Shown: positions 4,761 through 44,821 of the stretch, one piece after another
How the letters are laid out: each line of letters begins with the position of its first letter
Numbering within the stretch: the first letter of the stretch is position 1
Assembly: GCA_037446495.1 (NCBI GenBank)
Contig: JBBIIL010000003.1
Span: forward strand, 10,757-74,756
Length of the DNA stretch: 64,000 bases
Direction of reading: 5' to 3'
From: Chloroflexota bacterium
Lineage (GTDB): Bacteria > Chloroflexota > Limnocylindria > Limnocylindrales > CSP1-4
Position numbers and translations under genes: made by a program
Notes under the pieces: model-generated
What the model was told of the DNA's origin: nothing
The model's input: only the letters and a program-made list of their open reading frames with translations
Databases searched by the model: none

Positions 4761-6755
4761 ATGGCCGTCCCGGGCCGGATGGGGCATCATTCGTCGCGTT
4801 CGCGCCTGAGCCCGCATCCCGGCTCGTCCCCTCGGACCACCGTGACGAGAACCCCCGACTCCAGCGCCCCGAGCGAGCCCGGCGAGCCAGGGCCGGCTGC
4901 CCCTGTCGTCGAGTCGGACACGGTGGCCGGGGACGGCCCGCTCCCCTCCCCCGCCCCTCCCCGACTGCGCCGCCGCCTCGGGCTCTTCGCCGTCGCCTTT
5001 GTCCTGGGGCTGGTCGCCGTCATCGCGGTGTCGGGCGCCGGCCTCGCCGCCTGGGACTCCAGCTACGGCGCGCGGGTGCTGCCGGGCGTCCACGTCGGGG
5101 GCATTGACCTCTCGGGTCTCGACCGCGCCAGTGCCGCTGCCGCGCTCCGGGCCGGCCTGCTGTACGACCAGGGCGAGTTGATCCTGCGGACGCCGGGCGG
5201 TGACGTCTCGATCCCCTACAGCGCCTTCAACCGCCGGGCCGACGTGGATGCGCTCGTTGATGCCGCGCTCGGCTCCGCCCGCACCGGCGACCTCGCGACC
5301 CGAGTCGTCAGCCAGCTCGGCCAGGCCGTCCACGGGGTGTCGCTGGCGGCGCCTGTCGTGTTCGACGGTCAGGCCCTCGCGGCAGCGGTCACCGCGGCCC
5401 TGGCGCCGCTGGATGCCGGCCCGGTTGACGCCACGATCGCCGTGACCCACACCGGCTACGCGGTGACGCCGGCGCGGGACGGCAGCTCAGTGGACGCCGC
5501 GCCCGTGATCGCCGCGGCCGTCGCAGCAGTCGAACAGGCCGGCGCCGCCGCCCAGATCGTGATCCCGGTGACGGCGTCGCCGGTCCCGGCGGTCGTATCC
5601 GACGAAGCGGTCCGGGCCGCGGCGTTCCGCGCCGGCCTGATCACGAGCAGCGCCATCACCATCACCTCCGGCAAGCGGTCCTGGACCATCACGGCCGCCA
5701 CGATCCGAACATGGGTGGGCTTCTCGGCGGCGCCCGACGGGTCGCTGCAGCCGACCATCGACCTGACCAAGATTCCGGCAGCGCTCAAGAGCGTGGCCAA
5801 GAAGCTCCTCACCCCCGCCACGTCGGCGGTCTTCCTGCACGCGAAGAGCGGGACGATCGTGGGCGTGGCAGCGTCGGCCGACGGGAAGCAGCTCGACCTC
5901 GCGGCCACCTCACGGCGCATCTCGGACGCCCTGCTGGCGCGCATCCCAGCCTTCGGGATCGCGGCCCCGGTGAAGGTGGCGATGGCGCCGGTCCCGCCCA
6001 AGCTCACCACGGCGCAGGCGAAGCAGAAGGCCCCCGTGTTGACGCTGCTGGGCACCTGGACCACCTACTTCCCGATCAGCGACCACAACTACTTCGGGGC
6101 CAACATCTGGATCCCCGCCCAGATCATCAACGGCACCGTCCTCGCGGCCGGCCAGACCCTCGACTGGTGGAATGCCGTTGGCGACGTGACGCCGGCCCGC
6201 GGCTTCGGGCCCGGCGGCGTGATCCAGGGCGACCACACCGACCCCACGGGCGCGCTCGGCGGCGGCATGTGCTCGAGCTCCACGACCCTGTTCAACGCCG
6301 CGCTCCGAGCCGGGCTCCAGATGGGCGCCCGCGGCAACCACCGCTACTACATCAATCGCTACCCGCTGGGCCTCGACGCGACGGTCTGGAAGGTGGGCAC
6401 GGCCGTCCAGGACATGTCGTTCACCAACGACACGGGCAACCCGATCCTGATCCTGGGCATCAAGTCCAGCTCGGGGAGCGCAGGCTACGTCACCTACCAG
6501 CTGTGGGGCACCCCGGACGGCCGGAGCGTATCGCTGTCCTCGCCCTCGGTGACCAATGTGGTCCAGGCCACCACGACGACCCAGCTCGTGGGAACCCTCC
6601 CGCACGGCGTCCGGAACCAGACCGAGTACCCGTCCAACGAGATGGACGTGGCGGTCACGCGACAGGTCAAGGACAAGGGCGGGCGCCTGATCCACTCCGA
6701 GGTGTGGAGCTCGCACTACGTGCTCTGGAACGGGATCATCCAGATCGGCCGGTAG
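4761..6755 (+). CDS. VanW-family protein with an N-terminal TM anchor and a peptidoglycan-binding-like region
   Basis: N-terminal TM segment LGLFAVAFVLGLVAVIAVSGAG. VanW core: GFGPGGVIQGDHTDPTGALGGGMCSSSTTLFNAALRAGLQMGARGNHRYYINRYPLGLDATV. Confidence 0.8.
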   Translation: MAVPGRMGHHSSRSRLSPHPGSSPRTTVTRTPDSSAPSEPGEPGPAAPVVESDTVAGDGPLPSPAPPRLRRRLGLFAVAFVLGLVAVIAVSGAGLAAWDSSYGARVLPGVHVGGIDLSGLDRASAAAALRAGLLYDQGELILRTPGGDVSIPYSAFNRRADVDALVDAALGSARTGDLATRVVSQLGQAVHGVSLAAPVVFDGQALAAAVTAALAPLDAGPVDATIAVTHTGYAVTPARDGSSVDAAPVIAAAVAAVEQAGAAAQIVIPVTASPVPAVVSDEAVRAAAFRAGLITSSAITITSGKRSWTITAATIRTWVGFSAAPDGSLQPTIDLTKIPAALKSVAKKLLTPATSAVFLHAKSGTIVGVAASADGKQLDLAATSRRISDALLARIPAFGIAAPVKVAMAPVPPKLTTAQAKQKAPVLTLLGTWTTYFPISDHNYFGANIWIPAQIINGTVLAAGQTLDWWNAVGDVTPARGFGPGGVIQGDHTDPTGALGGGMCSSSTTLFNAALRAGLQMGARGNHRYYINRYPLGLDATVWKVGTAVQDMSFTNDTGNPILILGIKSSSGSAGYVTYQLWGTPDGRSVSLSSPSVTNVVQATTTTQLVGTLPHGVRNQTEYPSNEMDVAVTRQVKDKGGRLIHSEVWSSHYVLWNGIIQIGR

Positions 6756-6891: not shown

Positions 6892-7959
6892 CTACGGCAG
6901 CGGGCGCCAGAGGCGGCCCAGGAGGAGCCCGAGAGCGGTGAGCAGGCCCGCGAACGCCGCGAAGCCCGCCCCCACCTCGATCGTCTCGTGCTTGACCACC
7001 AGCGACATCGGCAGGCTCGCGAAGACCTGCTCGAGGTCGCCCGCGCTCTCGGCGGGATAGTACTGGCCGCCCGTGAGCTGGGCGATCTGCTTGAGCGTCG
7101 CATCGTCGATGCCCCGGCGGAAGCCGCCCTGCCCGCCCCCGAAGTTGCCGCCACCGAAGCCGAAGCCCCCGCCAAGGTTGGGCTCGCGGCCGAGGAACTG
7201 CTGCGCGCACTTGGCGCTCAGTGCCCCGCCGCTCGCGGTGCCGAAGCCGATGGTGTAGACGCGGACGCCGCGGTCCGCCGCCTCCTGCGCCGCGTCGAGC
7301 GGGGCCGGGCCGGTGTTGCTCGCACCGTCGGTCAAGAGCACCACGATGTCCGGTGCGTAGGCTCCGGGCGCGACGGGAACGGGGCCCTGCCCGCCGATCG
7401 CGGTCGTGGGGGCGACCGCGGGGTCCACCGTGGAGATGGCGCCGAGCGCGGCGAGGATGCCGCTGCCGATGGCGGTCCGCCGTCCCGTCGTGAGCGAGTG
7501 CAGGGCGTCGAGCAGCTTCGCCTGGTCAGTCGTGGGCGCCGCGATGAGCTCGGCGAACGTGGAGAAGGCCACGATCCCGATCTGGGTGGTGGCGCTCTGG
7601 TGCGTGATGAAGTCGGACGCAGCCGCCTCGGCGGCCTGGATGCGGGTGGGCGTCACGTCGGTGGAGCACATCGAGCCCGAGACGTCGATCGCGAGCAGGA
7701 CCGTCGTCCGGTTGGTCGGGACGGCCGCCACCGTGACAGGCCTGGCGAGGGCCACGGCGAGGCTCGCCACGGCCGCGAGCACGAGGACGATCGGGATGTG
7801 CCGGCGCCGGGACGCCCGGGGCATCGCCTCCCGCACCAGCGACAGGCTCGAGTACCGGACCGCCGCCGGTCGCCTGCGGCGAAGGGCCAGCGCGTACAGT
7901 GCCGCGAGCAGCGGGACGAGCACGAGGAGCAGCAGGAAGCCGGGCCACAGGAACTGCAT
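6892..7959 (-). CDS. VWA domain-containing membrane protein (BatA-like)
   Basis: N-terminal TMs FLLLLVLVPLLAALYALAL and IPIVLVLAAVASLAV. VWA MIDAS motif: TVLLAIDVSGSMCSTDVTPTRI...VVLLTDGASNTG. C-terminal TM. The stop/start overlaps the next VWA gene at 7959. Confidence 0.8.
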   Translation of the reverse strand: MQFLWPGFLLLLVLVPLLAALYALALRRRRPAAVRYSSLSLVREAMPRASRRRHIPIVLVLAAVASLAVALARPVTVAAVPTNRTTVLLAIDVSGSMCSTDVTPTRIQAAEAAASDFITHQSATTQIGIVAFSTFAELIAAPTTDQAKLLDALHSLTTGRRTAIGSGILAALGAISTVDPAVAPTTAIGGQGPVPVAPGAYAPDIVVLLTDGASNTGPAPLDAAQEAADRGVRVYTIGFGTASGGALSAKCAQQFLGREPNLGGGFGFGGGNFGGGQGGFRRGIDDATLKQIAQLTGGQYYPAESAGDLEQVFASLPMSLVVKHETIEVGAGFAAFAGLLTALGLLLGRLWRPLP

Positions 7960-8969
7960 CAGGGGAGCCTCCCGAGGAATGCGAGGGAGGTCATGACGCT
8001 GAGCACGACGAACGCCAACGCGGCCCCGGCCACCAGCGCCGTCAGCTCGATCGTCTGGTTCTCCATGGTCACCTTGGGCGCGATGGCGCTGTACACGTCG
8101 GTCAGGGTGGCCTGCGCGTCGGGCGCGTAGTACGTGCCCGCGGTCAGGGTCGCGATCTGCTGGAGGAGCGCCCCGTCCAGCTGCGAGTGGACGTGGAACC
8201 CGTTGAGGTTAAGGTCCGCGCCGCCTGCGGTCCCGATGGCCACAGTGTCCACGCGGATGCCCAGGTCCGCCGCCTGCTGCGCCACCGCCAGCGGGTCCGG
8301 CTGCTCGTTGTTCTCGCCGTCGGTCAGCAGGACCACCGCCGCCGAGCCGTGGCTCCCCGGCGGCACCGGCGCGGGCGTCGCGGTGGGCCCGGGCGCCGGC
8401 GAGGCGCTGCTGTAATAGTCCACTGACGAGCCAGCCTGCGCGACGGCGATCAGGTGGAGTGCAGCCTGCAGCCCCTGCCCGAGCGCCGTCCCCTTCTGGG
8501 GCGCGAGCTGCTTGATCGCCTGGAGCACCTCCGCCTGGTCCGTGGTGGGCGTCTGCACGGCGATCCCCGAGTCGCTGAACGCCACGATCCCGATGGCGAT
8601 CCCTGGCGGCTGGTGGCCGACGAAGTCGGTTGCCATGGCCTTGGCCGCGTCCATGCGCGTTGGCGACCCGTCGGTGGCGGCCATGCTGCCCGAGACGTCG
8701 AAGGCGAGCACCACGACACCCTGTCCCACCGGCAGGCTGACGGTCCCCTGCGGTCGGGCGATGGCGACGACGATGGCGACCAACGCCAGCAGCAGCAACG
8801 CCGTGGGGACACCGGTGCGCAGCCGCGCCCAGCGGCCGTCCGACACGCGACGCGGCACAGCCAGTCCCCCCGCCCGACGCGCCCGGCGGCGGCCGATGGA
8901 ACGGTAGGCAATGGCGCCCAGGGGGATCAGCAGCAGCAGCAGGAGCGCCCACGGCCAGGCCAAGCTCAT
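7959..8969 (-). CDS. VWA domain-containing membrane protein (BatB-like)
   Basis: WALLLLLLIPLGAIAY...VVVLAFDVSGSMAATDGSPTRMDAAK...AVVLLTDGENNEQPD, with a C-terminal TM segment. It is a paralog of the downstream VWA gene. Confidence 0.8.
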   Translation of the reverse strand: MSLAWPWALLLLLLIPLGAIAYRSIGRRRARRAGGLAVPRRVSDGRWARLRTGVPTALLLLALVAIVVAIARPQGTVSLPVGQGVVVLAFDVSGSMAATDGSPTRMDAAKAMATDFVGHQPPGIAIGIVAFSDSGIAVQTPTTDQAEVLQAIKQLAPQKGTALGQGLQAALHLIAVAQAGSSVDYYSSASPAPGPTATPAPVPPGSHGSAAVVLLTDGENNEQPDPLAVAQQAADLGIRVDTVAIGTAGGADLNLNGFHVHSQLDGALLQQIATLTAGTYYAPDAQATLTDVYSAIAPKVTMENQTIELTALVAGAALAFVVLSVMTSLAFLGRLP

Positions 8970-38516: not shown

Positions 38517-39500
38517 TCACGCCTCGAGCTGGCCAAGGCCCAGGTCGGCGGCGAGACCCGCGCAGACCTCCTCGGCGATATCGATGAACGCAAGCGTGGC
38601 GGGCGAGCGGTACCGGTCGCGGTGCCACACGAGCGCCACGCGCCGGGGCTCGAGGTCGGTTGGCAGGACGCGGATTGACGGGTCGCCCTGGTCGACGGTC
38701 AGGAGGGGCACCACCGCAACGCCCAGCCCGGCCGCGGCCATCGCCTGGATGGTGCCGTTGTCCTCCGACCGGAACACGAAGTCCGGCTCGTGACCGGTCT
38801 CGCGCAGGCGCTCCTCGGCGAACCGGGTGCTGCGGCACGTCCGGAAGCCGATCAGCTTCTGCTCGGCGATCATCGCGATGGTGGGCCGGTCGCCCAGGGC
38901 CAGCAGCGGCGCGTCGGGCCGCGCCACCACGACGAACGGGTCCCTCAGCAGCTCGATGCCCTCGAACGGTCCGGGCGGCAGTGGGAAGATGCCGAAGGCG
39001 AGCTCGACGGTGCCGTCGGCGATCAGCCCGAGGCCCGCGTCGTCGCTCAACACCTCGGTCATGTTGACGCGGATGCCGGGCCACGCCTGGCCGAAGCGAC
39101 CGAGAACCGCGGGCAGCGCCTTCGCCCCGACGCTCTGGAACACCGCGACGCGCAGCGTGCCCGTCTCCCCCGCTGCGTACGAGGTCAGGTCTGCGCGCGC
39201 CGCCTGCAGGCGATCGGCGATCGGGTCCACGTGCCGGAGGAGCAGGCGCCCGGCCTCGGTCAGGGACACGGTGCGTCGACCGCGGCCGCGGTCGAACAGC
39301 CGCAGGCCGAGGGCCGTCTCGAGGGCGGCGACGTGCTGGCTCACCGCCGACTGCGTGTAGTCGAGCGCGTCCGCCGCACCGTGGAATGAACCCTCCTGGG
39401 CCACGGCCCGGAAGCTGAGGAGCTGGCGGAGGCTGAAGTCCGCGAGGGCGTCAGGCAGCGCTCGGGCTTGGGCGATGTCCGAACCTTGATCATCGATCAT
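38517..39500 (-). CDS. LysR-family transcriptional regulator
   Basis: HTH LRQLLSFRAVAQEGSFHGAADALDYTQSAVSQHVAALETALGLRLFDR, followed by a LysR substrate-binding domain. Confidence 0.85.
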   Translation of the reverse strand: MIDDQGSDIAQARALPDALADFSLRQLLSFRAVAQEGSFHGAADALDYTQSAVSQHVAALETALGLRLFDRGRGRRTVSLTEAGRLLLRHVDPIADRLQAARADLTSYAAGETGTLRVAVFQSVGAKALPAVLGRFGQAWPGIRVNMTEVLSDDAGLGLIADGTVELAFGIFPLPPGPFEGIELLRDPFVVVARPDAPLLALGDRPTIAMIAEQKLIGFRTCRSTRFAEERLRETGHEPDFVFRSEDNGTIQAMAAAGLGVAVVPLLTVDQGDPSIRVLPTDLEPRRVALVWHRDRYRSPATLAFIDIAEEVCAGLAADLGLGQLEA

Positions 39501-39548: not shown

Positions 39549-39665
39549 ATGATGGCGGGCATGGAACTCCTCGTCCCCACCCTGATCATCATCCTCATCG
39601 CCATCCTGGCCCAGGCCGCCGGCGCCGATAGCCGAGACCTGTACCCCGACTGTCACCTCGCCTGA
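39549..39665 (+). CDS. possible small hydrophobic peptide (about 38 aa)
   Basis: MMAGMELLVPTLIIILIAILAQAAGADSRDLYPDCHLA. Divergent from lysR and adjacent to the left direct repeat of the pnp-3'-end insertion. Confidence 0.25.
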   Translation: MMAGMELLVPTLIIILIAILAQAAGADSRDLYPDCHLA

Positions 39666-39748
39666 CTGCCGCATGGACAACGCCCCCGGCGCCGCGAGGC
39701 CCGCCGTCACCGACGGGCCCCTCGCGGAGGCGCTGCTCTCGCGCGCCG

Positions 39749-39874
39749 CTACTTCCCCGGGTGGCGCTCAATCGCGGCCTTGCGGGACAGGTTCACGCGG
39801 TCCTGGCGGTGGATCTCCGTGACCACCACACAGTCCTTGGTGACCGTGCCGCCGATAGAGCCGAAGGAGCGACC
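39749..39874 (-). pseudogene. orphan 3'-end fragment of pnp (S1-domain C-terminus), duplicated copy
   Basis: The minus-strand frame immediately after the oxidoreductase stop reads [41 protein letters not shown], versus the PNPase C-terminus [34 protein letters not shown]. DNA identity of about 80% continues 43 bp beyond the stop on both copies. Confidence 0.75.
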
Positions 39875-41284
39875 TCAGTTGACTGCTGCCGGCCGGATGT
39901 TCTGGTTCAGGTGGAACGTGTTGTTGGGGTCCAGCCGACGCTTGAGTTGTGCCAGCCGCGCATAGGTCGCGGACCCATAGGCGTCGCGGATCCGGTCGTC
40001 GCCCTCTGAGCCGAGGAAGTTCACGTAGACACCGTCGGTCCACGGAGCCATGGCGCTGAAGGCACCCCGCGCCCACGCGATCCCCGCCTCGTCGTCGGCG
40101 GCCCGGTCCCACGTGCCGATGATGTTGAGCGTGAACGCTGCGTCTCGATGTGCGAAGGCCGTCGCCTCCCGCTCGACTCGGCCGACCGCGCCGCCCATCT
40201 GATGAAGGTGCAGCTGCCCGAATGGGACGGGCTTCCGGTCCGACCACTCCACCAGAGTCGTGAGGAACTCGGACTCGAGGGATCGGAGGTATCCGGACTT
40301 CCAGTACTGCCGCTGGCCGGCCGGCGCCGTCGGGTCGAGCATCGTCTGGAGCGCGTTGTAGGGCAACGGCCCGAGCAGGTCGGCGCTAGGCTCGAGCGCC
40401 TTGAGCGGCCGCAGCGCACGCTCGCCCACGGCTGCGTCGCCCGCATGGCAGGCCGCGATCGCGACCGCCGGACGCCCCTGGAGATCAGCCGGCACGAACG
40501 GCGCCGGCGGCGCGGTGATCAGGGCCGCGAGCAGCGTGAGATCGTCGTCAGCGGAAGCCGACAGATCGCGGAACGCCTCGAGGACCTCAGCCGTCCGCGC
40601 GGCCGGGAAGATCGCCATGCCGCCAGTCACCGTGGTCACGGGGTGGACGCGGAACGTCATCGACGTGACGACCCCGAAGTTGCCGCCGCCGCCGCGAAGA
40701 CCCCACAGAAGGTCCGGGTCCCCGTCCGCACCTGCCCGGACGACGGTTCCGTCCGCAGTCACCACCTCTGCGCCGACGAGGTTGTCGCAGGCGAGCCCAT
40801 GGCGACGCTGCAGCCACCCGATTCCGCCGCCGAGGGTGAAGCCGGCCACGCCGGTCGTGGAGACCAGACCGCCGGTCGTGTGGAGCCCGGCGTCCGCGAG
40901 CGCGGCGTCGAATGAGCCCCAGGTGTGACCTCCTCCGATCCGCGCGACACCGGCAGCCGGGTTCAGGTCCACGGACCGCATCGATGACACGTCGAGCACG
41001 AGCCCGTTGTCACAGGTCCCGAACCCGGCGACGTTGTGGCCGCCGGATCGCACGGAGATCTCGAGCCCGGCCTCCCGGGCGAACCGGATGCCCGCCGCGA
41101 CGTCCGCGTTCGAGGCACATCGCAGGATTGCGGCCGGGTACCGATCGATCATCCCGTTCCAGACGCGTCGCGCGTCGCCGTACTCCGGGTCGCTCGGCCG
41201 TACGAAGCTCCCGGAGACCTTAGCAGCAAGGGTGGCCAGGGCACCTTCGGGCAGGTCTCGGCTGGTCGTTTCGCGATCGGACAT
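39875..41284 (-). CDS. FAD-binding oxidoreductase (BBE/GlcD-like FAD-linked oxidase)
   Basis: FAD-binding PCMH domain: ILRCASNADVAAGIRFAREAGLEISVRSGGHNVAGF...GVAGFTLGGGIGWLQRRHGLACDNLVGAEVVTADG. C-terminal BBE-like region. Confidence 0.85.
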   Translation of the reverse strand: MSDRETTSRDLPEGALATLAAKVSGSFVRPSDPEYGDARRVWNGMIDRYPAAILRCASNADVAAGIRFAREAGLEISVRSGGHNVAGFGTCDNGLVLDVSSMRSVDLNPAAGVARIGGGHTWGSFDAALADAGLHTTGGLVSTTGVAGFTLGGGIGWLQRRHGLACDNLVGAEVVTADGTVVRAGADGDPDLLWGLRGGGGNFGVVTSMTFRVHPVTTVTGGMAIFPAARTAEVLEAFRDLSASADDDLTLLAALITAPPAPFVPADLQGRPAVAIAACHAGDAAVGERALRPLKALEPSADLLGPLPYNALQTMLDPTAPAGQRQYWKSGYLRSLESEFLTTLVEWSDRKPVPFGQLHLHQMGGAVGRVEREATAFAHRDAAFTLNIIGTWDRAADDEAGIAWARGAFSAMAPWTDGVYVNFLGSEGDDRIRDAYGSATYARLAQLKRRLDPNNTFHLNQNIRPAAVN

Positions 41285-41394
41285 CGTGTCGCTCCTTCAC
41301 TCCGGCTGATCGGTGTTCGCTCACCTCCGACGATGCGGCCCAAGGGCCGCGCCCGTCAGCGACCTTGGCTTCGGGAGCGGGGAACCTTTGCTCC

Positions 41395-42162
41395 TCAGGG
41401 CGTCGTCGGCCACGACTCCTCGTGCAGGCGTTCCGGCGCCAGCAGGACGACGCCGTCGCGTCCCGTCTCGACCAGGCCCGCGGTCCGGAGGTCGCGGAGC
41501 ACCCGGACGACAACCTCCCGACTCGTCCCGACGGCGTCGGCGAGGGCCGCCTGCGAGATCCGCGCAACGAGGCGACCCGAACCTCGGCCTGGCTGGGCGA
41601 TGTCGAGCAGGTGTCGCGCGACCTTCTGGCGGAGCCCCGAGAAGGTGCTCCCCACGAGCTCGCCCTGGTACGCGATGATGCGGTCCGAGAGTTCGGCCAA
41701 CAGGGCGACGGCGATCGCTGGATCCGTCGTCGAGAGCTCGCGCGCACGGCCAGGGCGAAGCGCCAAGACTCGCGTGTCGCGGAGCGCCACCGCCGCGACA
41801 ACATTCGGAAGCTCCGAGAACAGCGACCCGAAGCCGAGCTGCGCCCCGCCCCGCGCGTAGCGGATCGTCGCCTGTCGTCCGTCGGGTGATGACGCGACGA
41901 TCCTCACGAGGCCGTTGACCAGCAACATGGCGAATGGCGGCCCGCCCTCCGGATGGATGACACCGCCGGCAGGCACGACGTAGTCGAGGGCATCGTCGAG
42001 GAGTTGGACGAGCGACGCCATCGGCGCGCGGCCGAGGAACGACAGCCGCACGGCCGCTGCGATCTCCGGGTCATCGAGCGGCGCACGTGACAGCTTCGCG
42101 TCGGGCTGCGGATTCGGTCCGCTCATCGCCGGGTCGGTCGAGTTTCGGATCCTCGATTCCAT
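41395..42162 (-). CDS. Crp/Fnr-family transcriptional regulator
   Basis: cNMP-binding-like N-domain. C-terminal HTH RISQAALADAVGTSREVVVRVLRDLRTAGLV. Confidence 0.8.
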   Translation of the reverse strand: MESRIRNSTDPAMSGPNPQPDAKLSRAPLDDPEIAAAVRLSFLGRAPMASLVQLLDDALDYVVPAGGVIHPEGGPPFAMLLVNGLVRIVASSPDGRQATIRYARGGAQLGFGSLFSELPNVVAAVALRDTRVLALRPGRARELSTTDPAIAVALLAELSDRIIAYQGELVGSTFSGLRQKVARHLLDIAQPGRGSGRLVARISQAALADAVGTSREVVVRVLRDLRTAGLVETGRDGVVLLAPERLHEESWPTTP

Positions 42163-42241
42163 GCGCGAGAGGGTACGGCAGGAATCGAAAGGCCCGGCGT
42201 CACCGCCGGGCCCCTCGCGGGTGCGCTTGGTGAGCGCGCTG

Positions 42242-44821
42242 CTACTTCGCCAGGTGGCGCTGCATCGCGGCCTTGCGGGAGAGGTTGACGCGGCCCTGGC
42301 GGTCGATCTCGGTGACCACCACCATGACCTCGTCGCCCACCGACACGACGTCCTCGACGGACGGCACGTGGTAGTCGGCGAGCTCGCTGATCCGGACGAG
42401 GCCCTCCTTGCCCGGCAGGATCTCGACGAAGCAGCCGAAGGTCATCAGCCGGGTGACCTTGCCCAGGTACAGCGATCCCACCTCGACCTCGCGGGTGAGG
42501 CTCTCGATCCAGGTGACCGCCTTGCGCGAGTTCTCGCCGGAGACGGCCGCGATCTCCACGGTGCCGTCGTCCTCGACGTTGATCTCGGTGCCGGTCTCCT
42601 CCTGGATCTTGCGGATCATCGAGCCGCCCTTGCCGATGATCTCGCGGATCTTCTCGGGGTTGATCTTGATGGTGATGATGCGCGGCGCGAAGTCGCTCAT
42701 CGTCTCGCGGGCGGTCGGCAGGACCGCGGTCATCCGCTCAAGGATGAACAGGCGGGCGGCGAGTGCCTGCTTGAGGCCCTCGCGGATGACCCGCTCGTCG
42801 ATGCCCTTGACCTTGATGTCCATCTGGAGGGCGGTGATGCCCTCCGTGGTGCCGGTCACCTTGAAGTCCATGTCGCCGATCGAGTCCTCCTTGCCGAGGA
42901 TGTCGGTCAGCACGATGAAGTTACCGGTGTCCCCATCCATGACCAGGCCCATGGCCGCGCCGGCCACCGGCGCCTTGATCGGCACGCCCGCGTCCATCAG
43001 GGCGAGGGTGGACCCGCAGGTCGAGGCCATCGAGGTGGAGCCGTTGCCGGCCACGACCTCTGAGACGAGGCGGATCGTGTACGGGAACTCGTCGTGGCTC
43101 GGCAGGACCGGCAGGAGCGCCCGGCCGGCGAGGTTGCCGTGGCCGATGTCCCGGCGGGACGGGCCGCGCATGGGCTTGTTCTCGCCCGTGCTGTACGGCG
43201 GGAAGTTGTAGTGGTGGAGGTACCGCTTCTCGGTCTCGGGGCTGATCGTGTCGATCCGCTGCACATCCGAGGACGGGCCGAGCGTGGCGACGGTCAGCGC
43301 CTGGGTCTGGCCGCGGGTGAACAGGCCGGAGCCGTGCGCACGGGGCAGGAGGCCGACCTCGACCGAGATCGGGCGGATCTCGTCGATGGCGCGGCCGTCC
43401 ATGCGGATGCCCTCGGCGAGGACGACCTTGCGGACGGTCTTCTTCTGGACGAGCCCGAAGAGACCCTTGCTGACGCGGGCGTTCCGGCGGGCGGCCTCGA
43501 TGAGCCGGGCCGACTCGTCCTTGTCCGTGCGGGTGGCGCGGATCCCGTCGGCGATGCCGGCGGAGAGCGTGTCCAGACGGGCGGGCAGGTCGTTGCCGAA
43601 CCAGATCAGCAGGTTCGCGGTCGCCTCGGCGTCCGGCAGCGCACGGTGGCTCTGCGAGAGCTCGATGCCGAAGTACGCGGCGAGCGTGCCCAGCTTGTAG
43701 TTCTCGAGGTCCGGGTAGCCCTCCCGGGCGATCACGAACGTGTCCAGGTAGTTGCCCTGCGACACCTTGGCGCCCAGGGCCTCCTCGATGAAGCCGAGGT
43801 CGAACCCCACGCTGTGGCCGACGAACGGAGCGACGCCGACGAAGTCCGCGATCTTGCGCGCGGCCTCAGCCGGGCTCGGGGCGCCCTTGACGTCCTTGTC
43901 GCTGATGCCGTGCATCTGGTGGCCGACGATGGCGCGGCCCGGGTTGACGAGCGATGACCACCTGTCGGTGATCTTGCCGCCCTTGACACGCACGGCCGCG
44001 ACCTCGACGAGGTCCGCCATCTTGGGGTCCGTGCCGGTGGTCTCGACGTCCACGACCACGAACTCGCCGCCGGCCTTGGCCAGCTCGACGAACCGCAGGA
44101 CGGAGTTCGTCTGCGGCTCGATGTACGGCACGCGCTTGGCCTTGCCGACGAGCTCGCGCAGCTTCTCCTGGATCTCGACGATCGGCTGGAGCGAGCGCTG
44201 CGCGAACAGGATGGCCTCGGCCATCACGTCCTCGGGCAGGATCTTGACGCCCGCCTCCACCATCATGATCGCGTCGCGGGTGCCCGAGACGACGAGGTCG
44301 AGCTCGGACTCGGCGAGCTGGCTGATGGTCGGGTTGATCACGAACTCGCCGTCGATCCGCCCGATGCGAATCGCCGCGACCGGACCCTGGAACGGGATCT
44401 CGCTGATCGACAGCGCTGCGGACGCGGCGATGGTGCCCAGGACGTCCGGATCGTTCTCCTGGTCCGTCGACATGACGGTGATCACGATCTGGATGTCGTC
44501 CTTGTACCCCTCGGGGAACAGCGGGCGGATTGGCCGGTCGGTCAGGCGAGCGGCGAGGATGGCCTGCTCGGACGCGCGGCCCTCGCGCTTGATGAATCCG
44601 CCCGGGATCTTCCCGGCGGCGTACATGCGCTCCTCGAAGTCAACGGTGAGCGGGAAGAAGTCCAGGCCGGGGCGGGGCTCGCTCCGGTTGGCGGTGCCGA
44701 GGACGAGGGTGTCCCCGTAGCGGACGGTGACGGCGCCGCCAGCGAGGCCGGCGAGCTTGCCGGTCTCGAGCGTGAGGGTGCGTCCGCCGAGCTCGATCGC
44801 GAGCGTTGTGGGTGTGGGCAC
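42242..44821 (-). CDS. pnp: polyribonucleotide nucleotidyltransferase (PNPase) with an inserted DEDDh 3'-5' exonuclease domain
   Basis: 859 aa versus about 700-740 typical. RNase PH-1, KH ([17 protein letters not shown]) and S1 ([20 protein letters not shown]) domains are all present. Residues about 252-410 carry DnaQ-like motifs: Exo I [10 protein letters not shown], Exo II [12 protein letters not shown], Exo III [15 protein letters not shown]. They are inserted within the alpha-helical domain, before the ...[26 protein letters not shown] stretch. Confidence 0.9.
   Translation of the reverse strand: [859 protein letters not shown]

Follow-up and report, generated by a model that had tools for sequence, protein, structure and literature searches.

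We analysed a 64,000-nucleotide stretch of a Chloroflexota genome (class Limnocylindria, order Limnocylindrales, CSP1-4; contig JBBIIL010000003.1, positions 10,757 to 74,756), hereafter the window, and found that a two-gene module stands directly behind pnp, the gene for polynucleotide phosphorylase (PNPase), and is followed by a diverged duplicate of the pnp 3' end with its terminator hairpin. The module, which encodes a Crp/Fnr-family regulator and a BBE-like FAD-linked oxidoreductase, is a true lineage-specific insertion into a slot of variable gene content. We propose that it was acquired independently of any recombinase from a close relative, with pnp serving as the anchor, either by homology-facilitated illegitimate recombination (HFIR) or by a single crossover of a circular fragment, and we place the probability of this reading at roughly 0.5. 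The same anatomy arose twice, with the same cargo, at unrelated genes. The event is most likely fairly ordinary recombination, a further instance of a known event type. The features of the locus, in window coordinates, are as follows.

42242..44821, minus strand: intact pnp, encoding a PNPase of 859 amino acids (Pfam RNase_PH twice, RNase_PH_C, KH and S1); host gene whose 3' end is duplicated.
42190..42322, minus strand: right, pnp-attached repeat copy, with 26 codons and the stop at 42242-42322 and the hairpin part at 42190-42241; native type, under selection.
42176..42189, minus strand: native U-tract and flank, sense TTTCGATTCCTGCC, in a single copy; motif common to L176, L178 and L001 (our labels for loci of relatives).
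39830..42175, minus strand: inserted DNA, made up of a leader of ~49 nucleotides (nt), crp, a 110-nt spacer, the BBE gene and a 45-nt tail; missing from L176, L013, L178, L001 and other relatives.
41395..42126, minus strand: Crp/Fnr-family regulator gene (Pfam cNMP_binding and HTH_Crp_2).
39875..41284, minus strand: gene for the BBE-like FAD-linked oxidoreductase, 469 amino acids, full length (Pfam FAD_binding_4 and BBE).
39697..39829, minus strand: left, orphan repeat copy, with 26 degenerate pnp codons at 39752-39829, the stop at 39749-39751 and the hairpin region at 39697-39748; differs from the right copy.
39692..39727, minus strand: extended orphan hairpin, whose 8-bp outer stem (CCGCGAGG/CCTCGCGG) is formed with the distal junction (computed fold of -49.7 kcal/mol and reading of the sequence).
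39549..39665, plus strand: small hydrophobic open reading frame (ORF) in the native distal flank, encoding a conserved peptide.
38517..39500, minus strand: lysR-family regulator, the native downstream neighbour (Pfam; window 39702 to 38407 aligns with L176 2242-3539).

The direct repeat is real and lies far beyond chance. Its best ungapped segment pairs 39697-39829 with 42190-42322 at an offset of 2493, giving 133 nt at 85% identity, where the original prediction, made from the letters of the window alone, had described 172 bp at about 80%. The local alignment score of this repeat was 83, compared with 10.0 +/- 1.1 for shuffled sequences (z ~64), and identity on both sides of it is at background, with only 5-7 matches per 15 positions in 39830-39877. 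Read on the minus strand, which is the sense strand, the repeat comprises the last 26 pnp codons and the stop (81 nt) followed by 52 nt containing the terminator hairpin, instead of the proposed ~40 codons and 43 bp of downstream sequence. The orphan had also been thought to begin exactly at the BBE stop codon (39875-39877); homology in fact starts 45 nt after it, at 39829, and these 45 nt are not pnp-derived. We rejected an extension of the homology up to the BBE stop, given the background identity beyond 39829 and given that homology to L081, the nearest module copy, runs on for ~12 nt behind the stop, which makes these nucleotides part of the module. A gapped extension at the protein level (SIGGTV vs SVGDEV) was unconvincing. 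The orphan frame nonetheless runs on continuously from the BBE frame, from the BBE stop to the orphan stop at 39749-39751. Within the 64-kb window the 133-nt repeat is the sole family of its kind, and the hairpin core occurs exactly twice at up to 3 mismatches (0 expected), so the expectation that the repeat is specific to pnp, and no generic element, held.

Alignment to the empty site of a relative located the junctions. In a blastn comparison, window 42700 to 42176 matched L176 1464-1985 continuously at 92.8%, and the alignment resumed at 39702, from where it ran into lysR and asd at 80%; this sets the proximal breakpoint at 42175/42176 and the distal breakpoint at 39702/39703. The right-copy terminator folds as a 14-bp stem, then UUUCGAUU. 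Beyond the right repeat copy come a further 14 nt of native sequence, TTTCGATTCCTGCCG, reaching 42176; L176 and L178 have this stretch too, and L001 has part of it; the last G of the motif TTTCGATTCCTGCC is 42175, just outside the mapped homology. The module therefore entered intergenic DNA directly behind the terminator; the suggested insertion within the 3' end of pnp did not hold. At the distal junction, the 3' base of the orphan hairpin is joined to sequence that lies 256 nt further downstream in L176, and the microhomology GGGC(C)CTC is present at both of the L176 sites so joined. Where the module tail meets pnp codon -26 we saw no clear microhomology; these are old junctions and have diverged.

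To place the insertion, we compared it with relatives obtained by scanning species-representative genomes with PNPase, a scan that puts the window in the Chloroflexota, Candidatus Limnocylindria, and with closer ones reached through the LysR protein, about 21 Limnocylindria loci with pnp or lysR in all. The commonest gene order was rpsO-pnp-asd-udg-rnj-ftsK. In L176 and L013, pnp is followed by the small ORF, lysR and asd, with a hairpin behind pnp in L176. These two loci are the empty sites that the original prediction had called for, and pnp is next to asd in most relatives. Neither crp, the BBE gene nor a second pnp fragment was present at the locus in the relatives examined, and none of them had the duplicated arrangement. 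Both flanks of the insertion are syntenic with relatives (rpsO-pnp on one side, lysR-asd-udg-rnj-ftsK on the other). The suggested composition check agreed with an insertion in codon usage: GC content at third codon positions is 0.85 in the cargo and 0.90-0.97 in all flanking genes, while overall GC is the same in cargo and flanks. In L178, the closest relative by pnp (its PNPase is 92% identical to that of the window; that of L001 is 87% identical), the same slot holds a zinc-ribbon gene, a GNAT acetyltransferase gene and a 135-amino-acid ORF, and L177 holds another set. The interval from pnp to lysR or asd is thus a hotspot of variable cargo in the clade, and the crp-BBE pair is one lineage-specific occupant of it. 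Orphan pnp ends were absent behind the other cargo of this slot in 15 relatives, with alignment scores of 11.5-18.5 compared with 83 here. As a gauge of whether the two flanks differ in history, four-fold-site identity to L178 was 0.76 for pnp, 0.70 for asd and 0.47 for lysR, a spread that codon bias alone could account for. As a side observation, the cargo downstream of pnp in L178 (7282-9090), L177 (55-3784), L008 and L009 consisted of a DZR gene with a GNAT gene, a 744-amino-acid CarboxypepD_reg protein, or 2.6-7 kb of other genes.

The two repeat copies have had different fates. The 81 coding nucleotides of the right copy, which completes the intact pnp gene as predicted (42242-44821, minus strand), are 100% identical to L178 and 94% identical to L176, and the encoded peptide is identical to that of L013 and L178; for the 52 nt behind the stop, the identity is 94% to L176 and 78% to L178. 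This mosaic, with a coding part like L178 and a non-coding part nearer to L176, suggests a past homologous exchange with a breakpoint near the pnp stop, and such patterns suggest that homologous exchange may be frequent at the pnp locus. Across the orphan, identity is 85% to the right copy, 82% to L176 and 81% to L178. The coding parts of the two copies differ at 9 of 81 positions (six non-synonymous and three synonymous differences), seven of which are unique to the orphan and none to the right copy. A 6:3 ratio is what unconstrained decay of the orphan would produce, and the orphan appears to be a non-functional pnp relic whose coding part is decaying neutrally. Its hairpin is of the type found in the subclade of the window, L176 and L178, and not of the L001 or L013 type, which indicates this lineage, or one very closely related to it, as the source of the duplicated segment. 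The orphan has accumulated ~0.09-0.11 changes per site, similar to or somewhat below the per-lineage synonymous divergence from L178; this fits an event after the split from L176 and L178, both of which lack the insertion.

The hairpin of the orphan has been retained. Its inner stem is preserved by a paired change from G-C to U.G, and the structure is intact and lengthened by the 8-bp outer stem. It is likely to serve as the terminator of crp-BBE and of the convergent small ORF, a role that we infer; termination of the new operon and of the small ORF is probably why it was kept and lengthened. Scans with Rfam and with consensus promoter and terminator models returned nothing relevant. The start of crp is likely to be the ATG at 42124-42126, taken from the L081 orthologue; the ORF could reach 42162. 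The small ORF encodes a conserved micropeptide of 35-38 amino acids, MELL(V/L)P.L...(I/L)AILAQ.AG.DSRD, which is always divergent from lysR. The peptide is conserved in L176 (2280-2387) and L177 (3843-3950), its gene is called in three contigs, and it had no Pfam match; the small ORF is probably a target of the divergent LysR regulator.

The same pair of genes occurs elsewhere in other chromosomes. The nearest homologues of the BBE protein are 90%, 72%, 66%, 66%, 61% and 59% identical to it, and the 90% homologue is at a different locus. In every recovered contig the same Crp-family gene precedes the BBE gene, and the chromosomal site is different: the pair lies after rnhB in L081, after an AraC/DJ-1 gene in L082, after nth in L085-L087, beside a tRNA gene in L168, beside a VCPO-like gene in L169 and after the his operon (hisIE) in L170-L175. 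The module is therefore found, bare, at no fewer than six, that is at least six, other chromosomal sites. Homology between the window and L081 covers the two genes, ~12 nt after the BBE stop and at most 30 nt before the crp ATG, and the sequences downstream of seven module copies are unrelated. We found no shared flanking or terminal sequence, inverted repeats, attachment-like ends or pnp-like segment at the other module sites. An exact look-up of the window BBE protein returned no identical record, and in a metagenome scan with a BBE alignment the homologues among the matches listed were at most 54% identical, none of them with an adjacent crp. The insertion loci of L081 and L085 are not in the window, hence it provides no reciprocal empty sites for them. 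In L168, at ~2455-2535, the tRNA gene is encoded on the strand opposite to the BBE gene, ~55 nt downstream of it and with the 3' end pointing back toward it; its anticodon loop, read directly from the sequence, is Thr-CGT.

We applied one shuffle-controlled test, comparing the sequence upstream of crp with the sequence downstream of the BBE gene, at seven module sites. Similarity was significant only in the window (z ~64) and in L085 (z ~11), and the five other sites had no flanking repeats (z below 1.3). In L085, whose host is also a member of the Limnocylindria, a second copy of the last 10-13 nth codons with their stop lies 17-26 nt beyond the BBE stop. This duplicate is ~31-41 nt long, with 22 of 23 core positions matching. 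All nth relatives end in CPLR(E/D)RCRFVDPKAP, as does the attached copy, and the L085 orphan reads VCDLCRFVDPKAA. An empty site exists here as well: in L179, a response regulator gene lies 43 nt after nth, so that one L085 breakpoint falls in the region of the nth stop and the other 19 nt short of the regulator gene. Among 178 loci, the repeat core was found only as its own pair in L085, L086 and L087, which are three independent contigs. The orphan nth end (5091-5150) is in the BBE reading frame, as is the orphan in the window (39749-39877). That the orphan follows the TGA stop directly in the BBE frame in both footprints has a chance of ~1 in 9.

How such a footprint can arise is known from experiments. 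DNA with only a gene end on it mostly enters in circular form through a single crossover, which leaves end duplications of 109-950 bp, and in HFIR the non-homologous end is joined illegitimately, usually at microhomologies of 3-10 bp; both routes have been characterised in E. coli, S. pneumoniae, Acinetobacter and P. stutzeri (PMC3240628). A displacement resembling HFIR has been proposed for orphaned 3' regions at Rhs and type VI secretion system (T6SS) loci (PMC5361080). The footprint at pnp is what host recombination of this kind yields, and we consequently favour acquisition from a close relative. Donor DNA from a closely related strain would have carried the pnp 3' end and terminator with the module behind them, and its recombination with the recipient chromosome would have been anchored by homology in pnp. 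At the other end, an illegitimate join 26 codons before the stop of the recipient pnp would have followed, as in HFIR; alternatively, a circularised fragment would have entered by a single crossover within the pnp end. Both routes would produce the order pnp, intact end, module, orphan end, old downstream DNA. Afterwards the pnp-attached end would have stayed under purifying selection while the orphan coding part decayed neutrally and the orphan hairpin was kept and lengthened. Two features expected of homology-dependent acquisition are present: foreign DNA at a conserved anchor that has empty sites in relatives (L176, L013 and L001 for pnp; L179 for nth), and an orphan anchor end at the distal junction, with a hairpin of the subclade type.

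Several points weigh against this reading. The donor arrangement, a module behind pnp with no orphan, was not found among the ~21 Limnocylindria loci listed, a sparse sampling, and with no donor-type genome the primary insertion behind pnp goes unexplained. No recombination breakpoint inside pnp emerged from sliding identity to L178, L176 and L001. Sites informative on the origin of the orphan split 2:1:1, which weakly favours derivation of the orphan from the window's own lineage over a sister lineage. The model needs at least two events and, in addition, a 256-nt indel difference relative to L176. Finally, the ~31-41-nt duplicate in L085 is marginal for a RecA-mediated single crossover, although it would suit HFIR.

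Of the alternatives, a one-step duplicative insertion has the most to recommend it. A nascent strand near the pnp terminator hairpin would switch to an ectopic crp-BBE template and return 149 nt upstream, at pnp codon -26, where it would copy the pnp end again (a microhomology-mediated template switch or staggered-break fill-in); a microhomology-mediated deletion at GGGC.CTC, then or simultaneously, would remove the second U-tract and ~256 nt. Such an event requires no separate donor strain with the module behind pnp, and the purely neutral-looking coding differences (6 non-synonymous, 3 synonymous) fit copies that were identical when it took place. Both junctions lie at or beside a strong hairpin, the distal one has GGGC(C)CTC microhomology with the two L176 sites joined, and duplications of variable length (133 nt and ~31-41 nt) at two unrelated genes are explained more naturally by a mechanism that generates duplications. 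However, the mechanism is poorly documented in bacteria, it needs an extra or simultaneous deletion to account for the missing orphan U-tract, it presupposes an ectopic crp-BBE template, and the two module junctions have no clear microhomology. We regard it as possible, and as deserving serious weight, but on balance unlikely. A bolder proposal, which we consider quite unlikely, is that the Crp-BBE pair is a recombinase-free mobile module of the Limnocylindria that inserts, co-oriented, just downstream of host genes by a dedicated or stereotyped and so far undescribed mechanism, for example duplicative template switching promoted by the terminator hairpin, which duplicates the 3' end and terminator of the upstream gene. 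On the same proposal, the pnp and nth footprints would be fresh and the five sites without repeats would be older, with a decayed orphan. If it were true, the in-frame orphans would be meaningful and not a 1-in-9 coincidence, and if the footprint were found to recur systematically at unrelated genes with this one cargo, it would point to an unrecognised mode of gene-cassette mobility; for now this is a minority reading. A very unlikely sequence of events would have the module insert without any duplication, the segment from the pnp end to the module then duplicate in tandem, and the second module copy be deleted. Tandem duplications are common, and this order of events explains why both copies are of the same lineage type and is compatible with the microhomology at the distal junction; it nevertheless calls for three separate events with fortuitous endpoints and for the same outcome independently at nth in L085, and no remnant of a second module copy is present.

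The original prediction had interpreted the repeats as the footprint of a decayed integrase-type element that entered the 3' end of pnp and brought a replacement end with it. In E. coli, e14 and phage 21 integrate at icd in this manner, entering at its 3' end and bringing a substitute for it; such prophages and islands are known to bring their own integrase and to enter one constant target through a fixed attachment site whose core is identical. An element stripped of its integrase, with a pnp-like attachment site replacing the gene end, would account for direct repeats that flank foreign genes with one copy completing pnp, and for the existence of empty sites, and the module in L168 does lie ~55 nt from the 3' end of a tRNA gene, a classical integration target. 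We found no integrase, recombinase or remnant of one: the 2.35-kb insert is filled by two intact genes (the regulator and oxidoreductase that had been predicted between the copies, as Pfam confirms), and the flanks, including those beyond lysR, are syntenic with relatives. The 14 nt of native flank past the right repeat mean that the repeat does not abut the insert as an attachment site would, module copies elsewhere share no terminal sequences with the window copy, five of the seven module sites have no flanking repeat, and no two sites have the same target (pnp, rnhB, nth, hisIE and others), whereas a site-specific element would keep to one. The integrase model is thus largely refuted, and we consider it highly improbable. 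Of the idea of an incoming replacement end, one part stands: an intact end may have displaced the old one, although only through homologous and illegitimate recombination with DNA of a close relative, and the right copy may have been supplied by such a relative. The part that it was supplied by a foreign element we rejected as stated, as this copy has a native flank and is of the type native to the clade; a relative's pnp matches its coding part exactly, so the copy is not an independently evolving mimic of a phage attachment site. An assembly artefact, or a generic dispersed repeat or terminator element that does not derive from pnp, is refuted. The source is a metagenome-assembled genome, and the duplicated unit has a GC-rich, potentially repetitive hairpin; yet copies only 85% identical would not mislead an assembler, as the original prediction had argued, pnp coding sequence, in register with the stop codon, accounts for 81 of the 133 nt, the 64 kb contain just two copies, the transition into sequence syntenic with relatives is clean on both sides, and an independent assembly has the same type of footprint at another gene in three separate contigs. 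Two further candidates were discarded. A transposon or insertion sequence with target-site duplication did not fit the absence of a transposase (Pfam), the duplication lengths of 133 and ~31-41 nt, a right copy that does not abut the insert and the lack of shared terminal repeats. An integron gene cassette did not fit the lack of a shared attC-type end, as homology between the window and L081 stops ~12 nt after the BBE stop and seven downstream sequences are unrelated. The generic repeat, as above, did not fit the count of two copies in the window, with the L085 repeat core likewise limited to its own pair.

Two observations in the window stand apart from the insertion. The PNPase is predicted to contain a DEDDh (RNase_T/DnaQ-like) exonuclease domain between its two RNase PH halves (43598-44068, minus strand, residues ~252-408; Pfam PF00929, E 1.8e-26), with all DEDDh motifs present: DxE (DVETTG), D (GFDLGF) and Hx4D (HRALPDAE). 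It is because of this inserted domain that the protein is 859 amino acids long. The long form was present in all ~19 Limnocylindria relatives, whereas other phyla have the usual ~700 amino acids. The inserted domain was found in none of the solved PNPase structures, the stretch matching exonuclease domains of PolC, DinG and DnaQ instead, and a literature search found no description of a PNPase with an inserted DEDDh domain. A phosphorolytic and a hydrolytic 3'-5' exonuclease in one polypeptide, as predicted from the motifs, may outrank the insertion itself in interest. The window also contains a second two-copy direct repeat (7597-7697 and 8610-8710; 101 nt, 73% identity, spacing 1013 nt), which may stem from paralogous adjacent genes.

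Together, these data make the pnp locus a clean natural example, with empty-site controls, of how small modules enter housekeeping neighbourhoods without mobile-element machinery, in an uncultured lineage of soil and freshwater. They also suggest that the orphan gene end and terminator left behind as a by-product of such an event can find a new use even as the coding part decays. For annotation, the lesson is that an integrase-type island should not be called solely because foreign genes are flanked by a duplicated gene 3' end. As with the icd prophages, the gene stays intact and a partial, diverged copy of its 3' end stands at the far side of the insert; unlike them, the locus has no integrase, no fixed site with an identical core and no constant target.

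The closer likeness is to Campbell-type integration and HFIR, in which foreign DNA comes to lie beside a homologous anchor with no dedicated recombinase. As in the single-crossover route, a duplicate of the gene end flanks the insert, and its 133 nt here fall within the experimental range of 109-950 bp. Unlike the experimental systems, this was a natural and ancient event in an uncultured Chloroflexota lineage, and its donor is not among the relatives examined. It differs from classical HFIR in that HFIR usually deletes recipient DNA, whereas here a duplicate was left, and the duplicate in L085, at ~31-41 nt, is far shorter. The arrangement also resembles the effector-immunity orphans of Rhs, contact-dependent inhibition (CDI) and T6SS loci (PMC5361080), with a conserved upstream anchor, a new downstream part and an old 3' segment pushed downstream. 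Those are polymorphic toxin loci, where orphans can stay functional as immunity genes or toxin tips and accumulate in arrays; at pnp, by contrast, the anchor is a housekeeping gene with an unchanged end, the cargo is a regulator and an oxidase, and the coding part of the orphan appears merely to be decaying.

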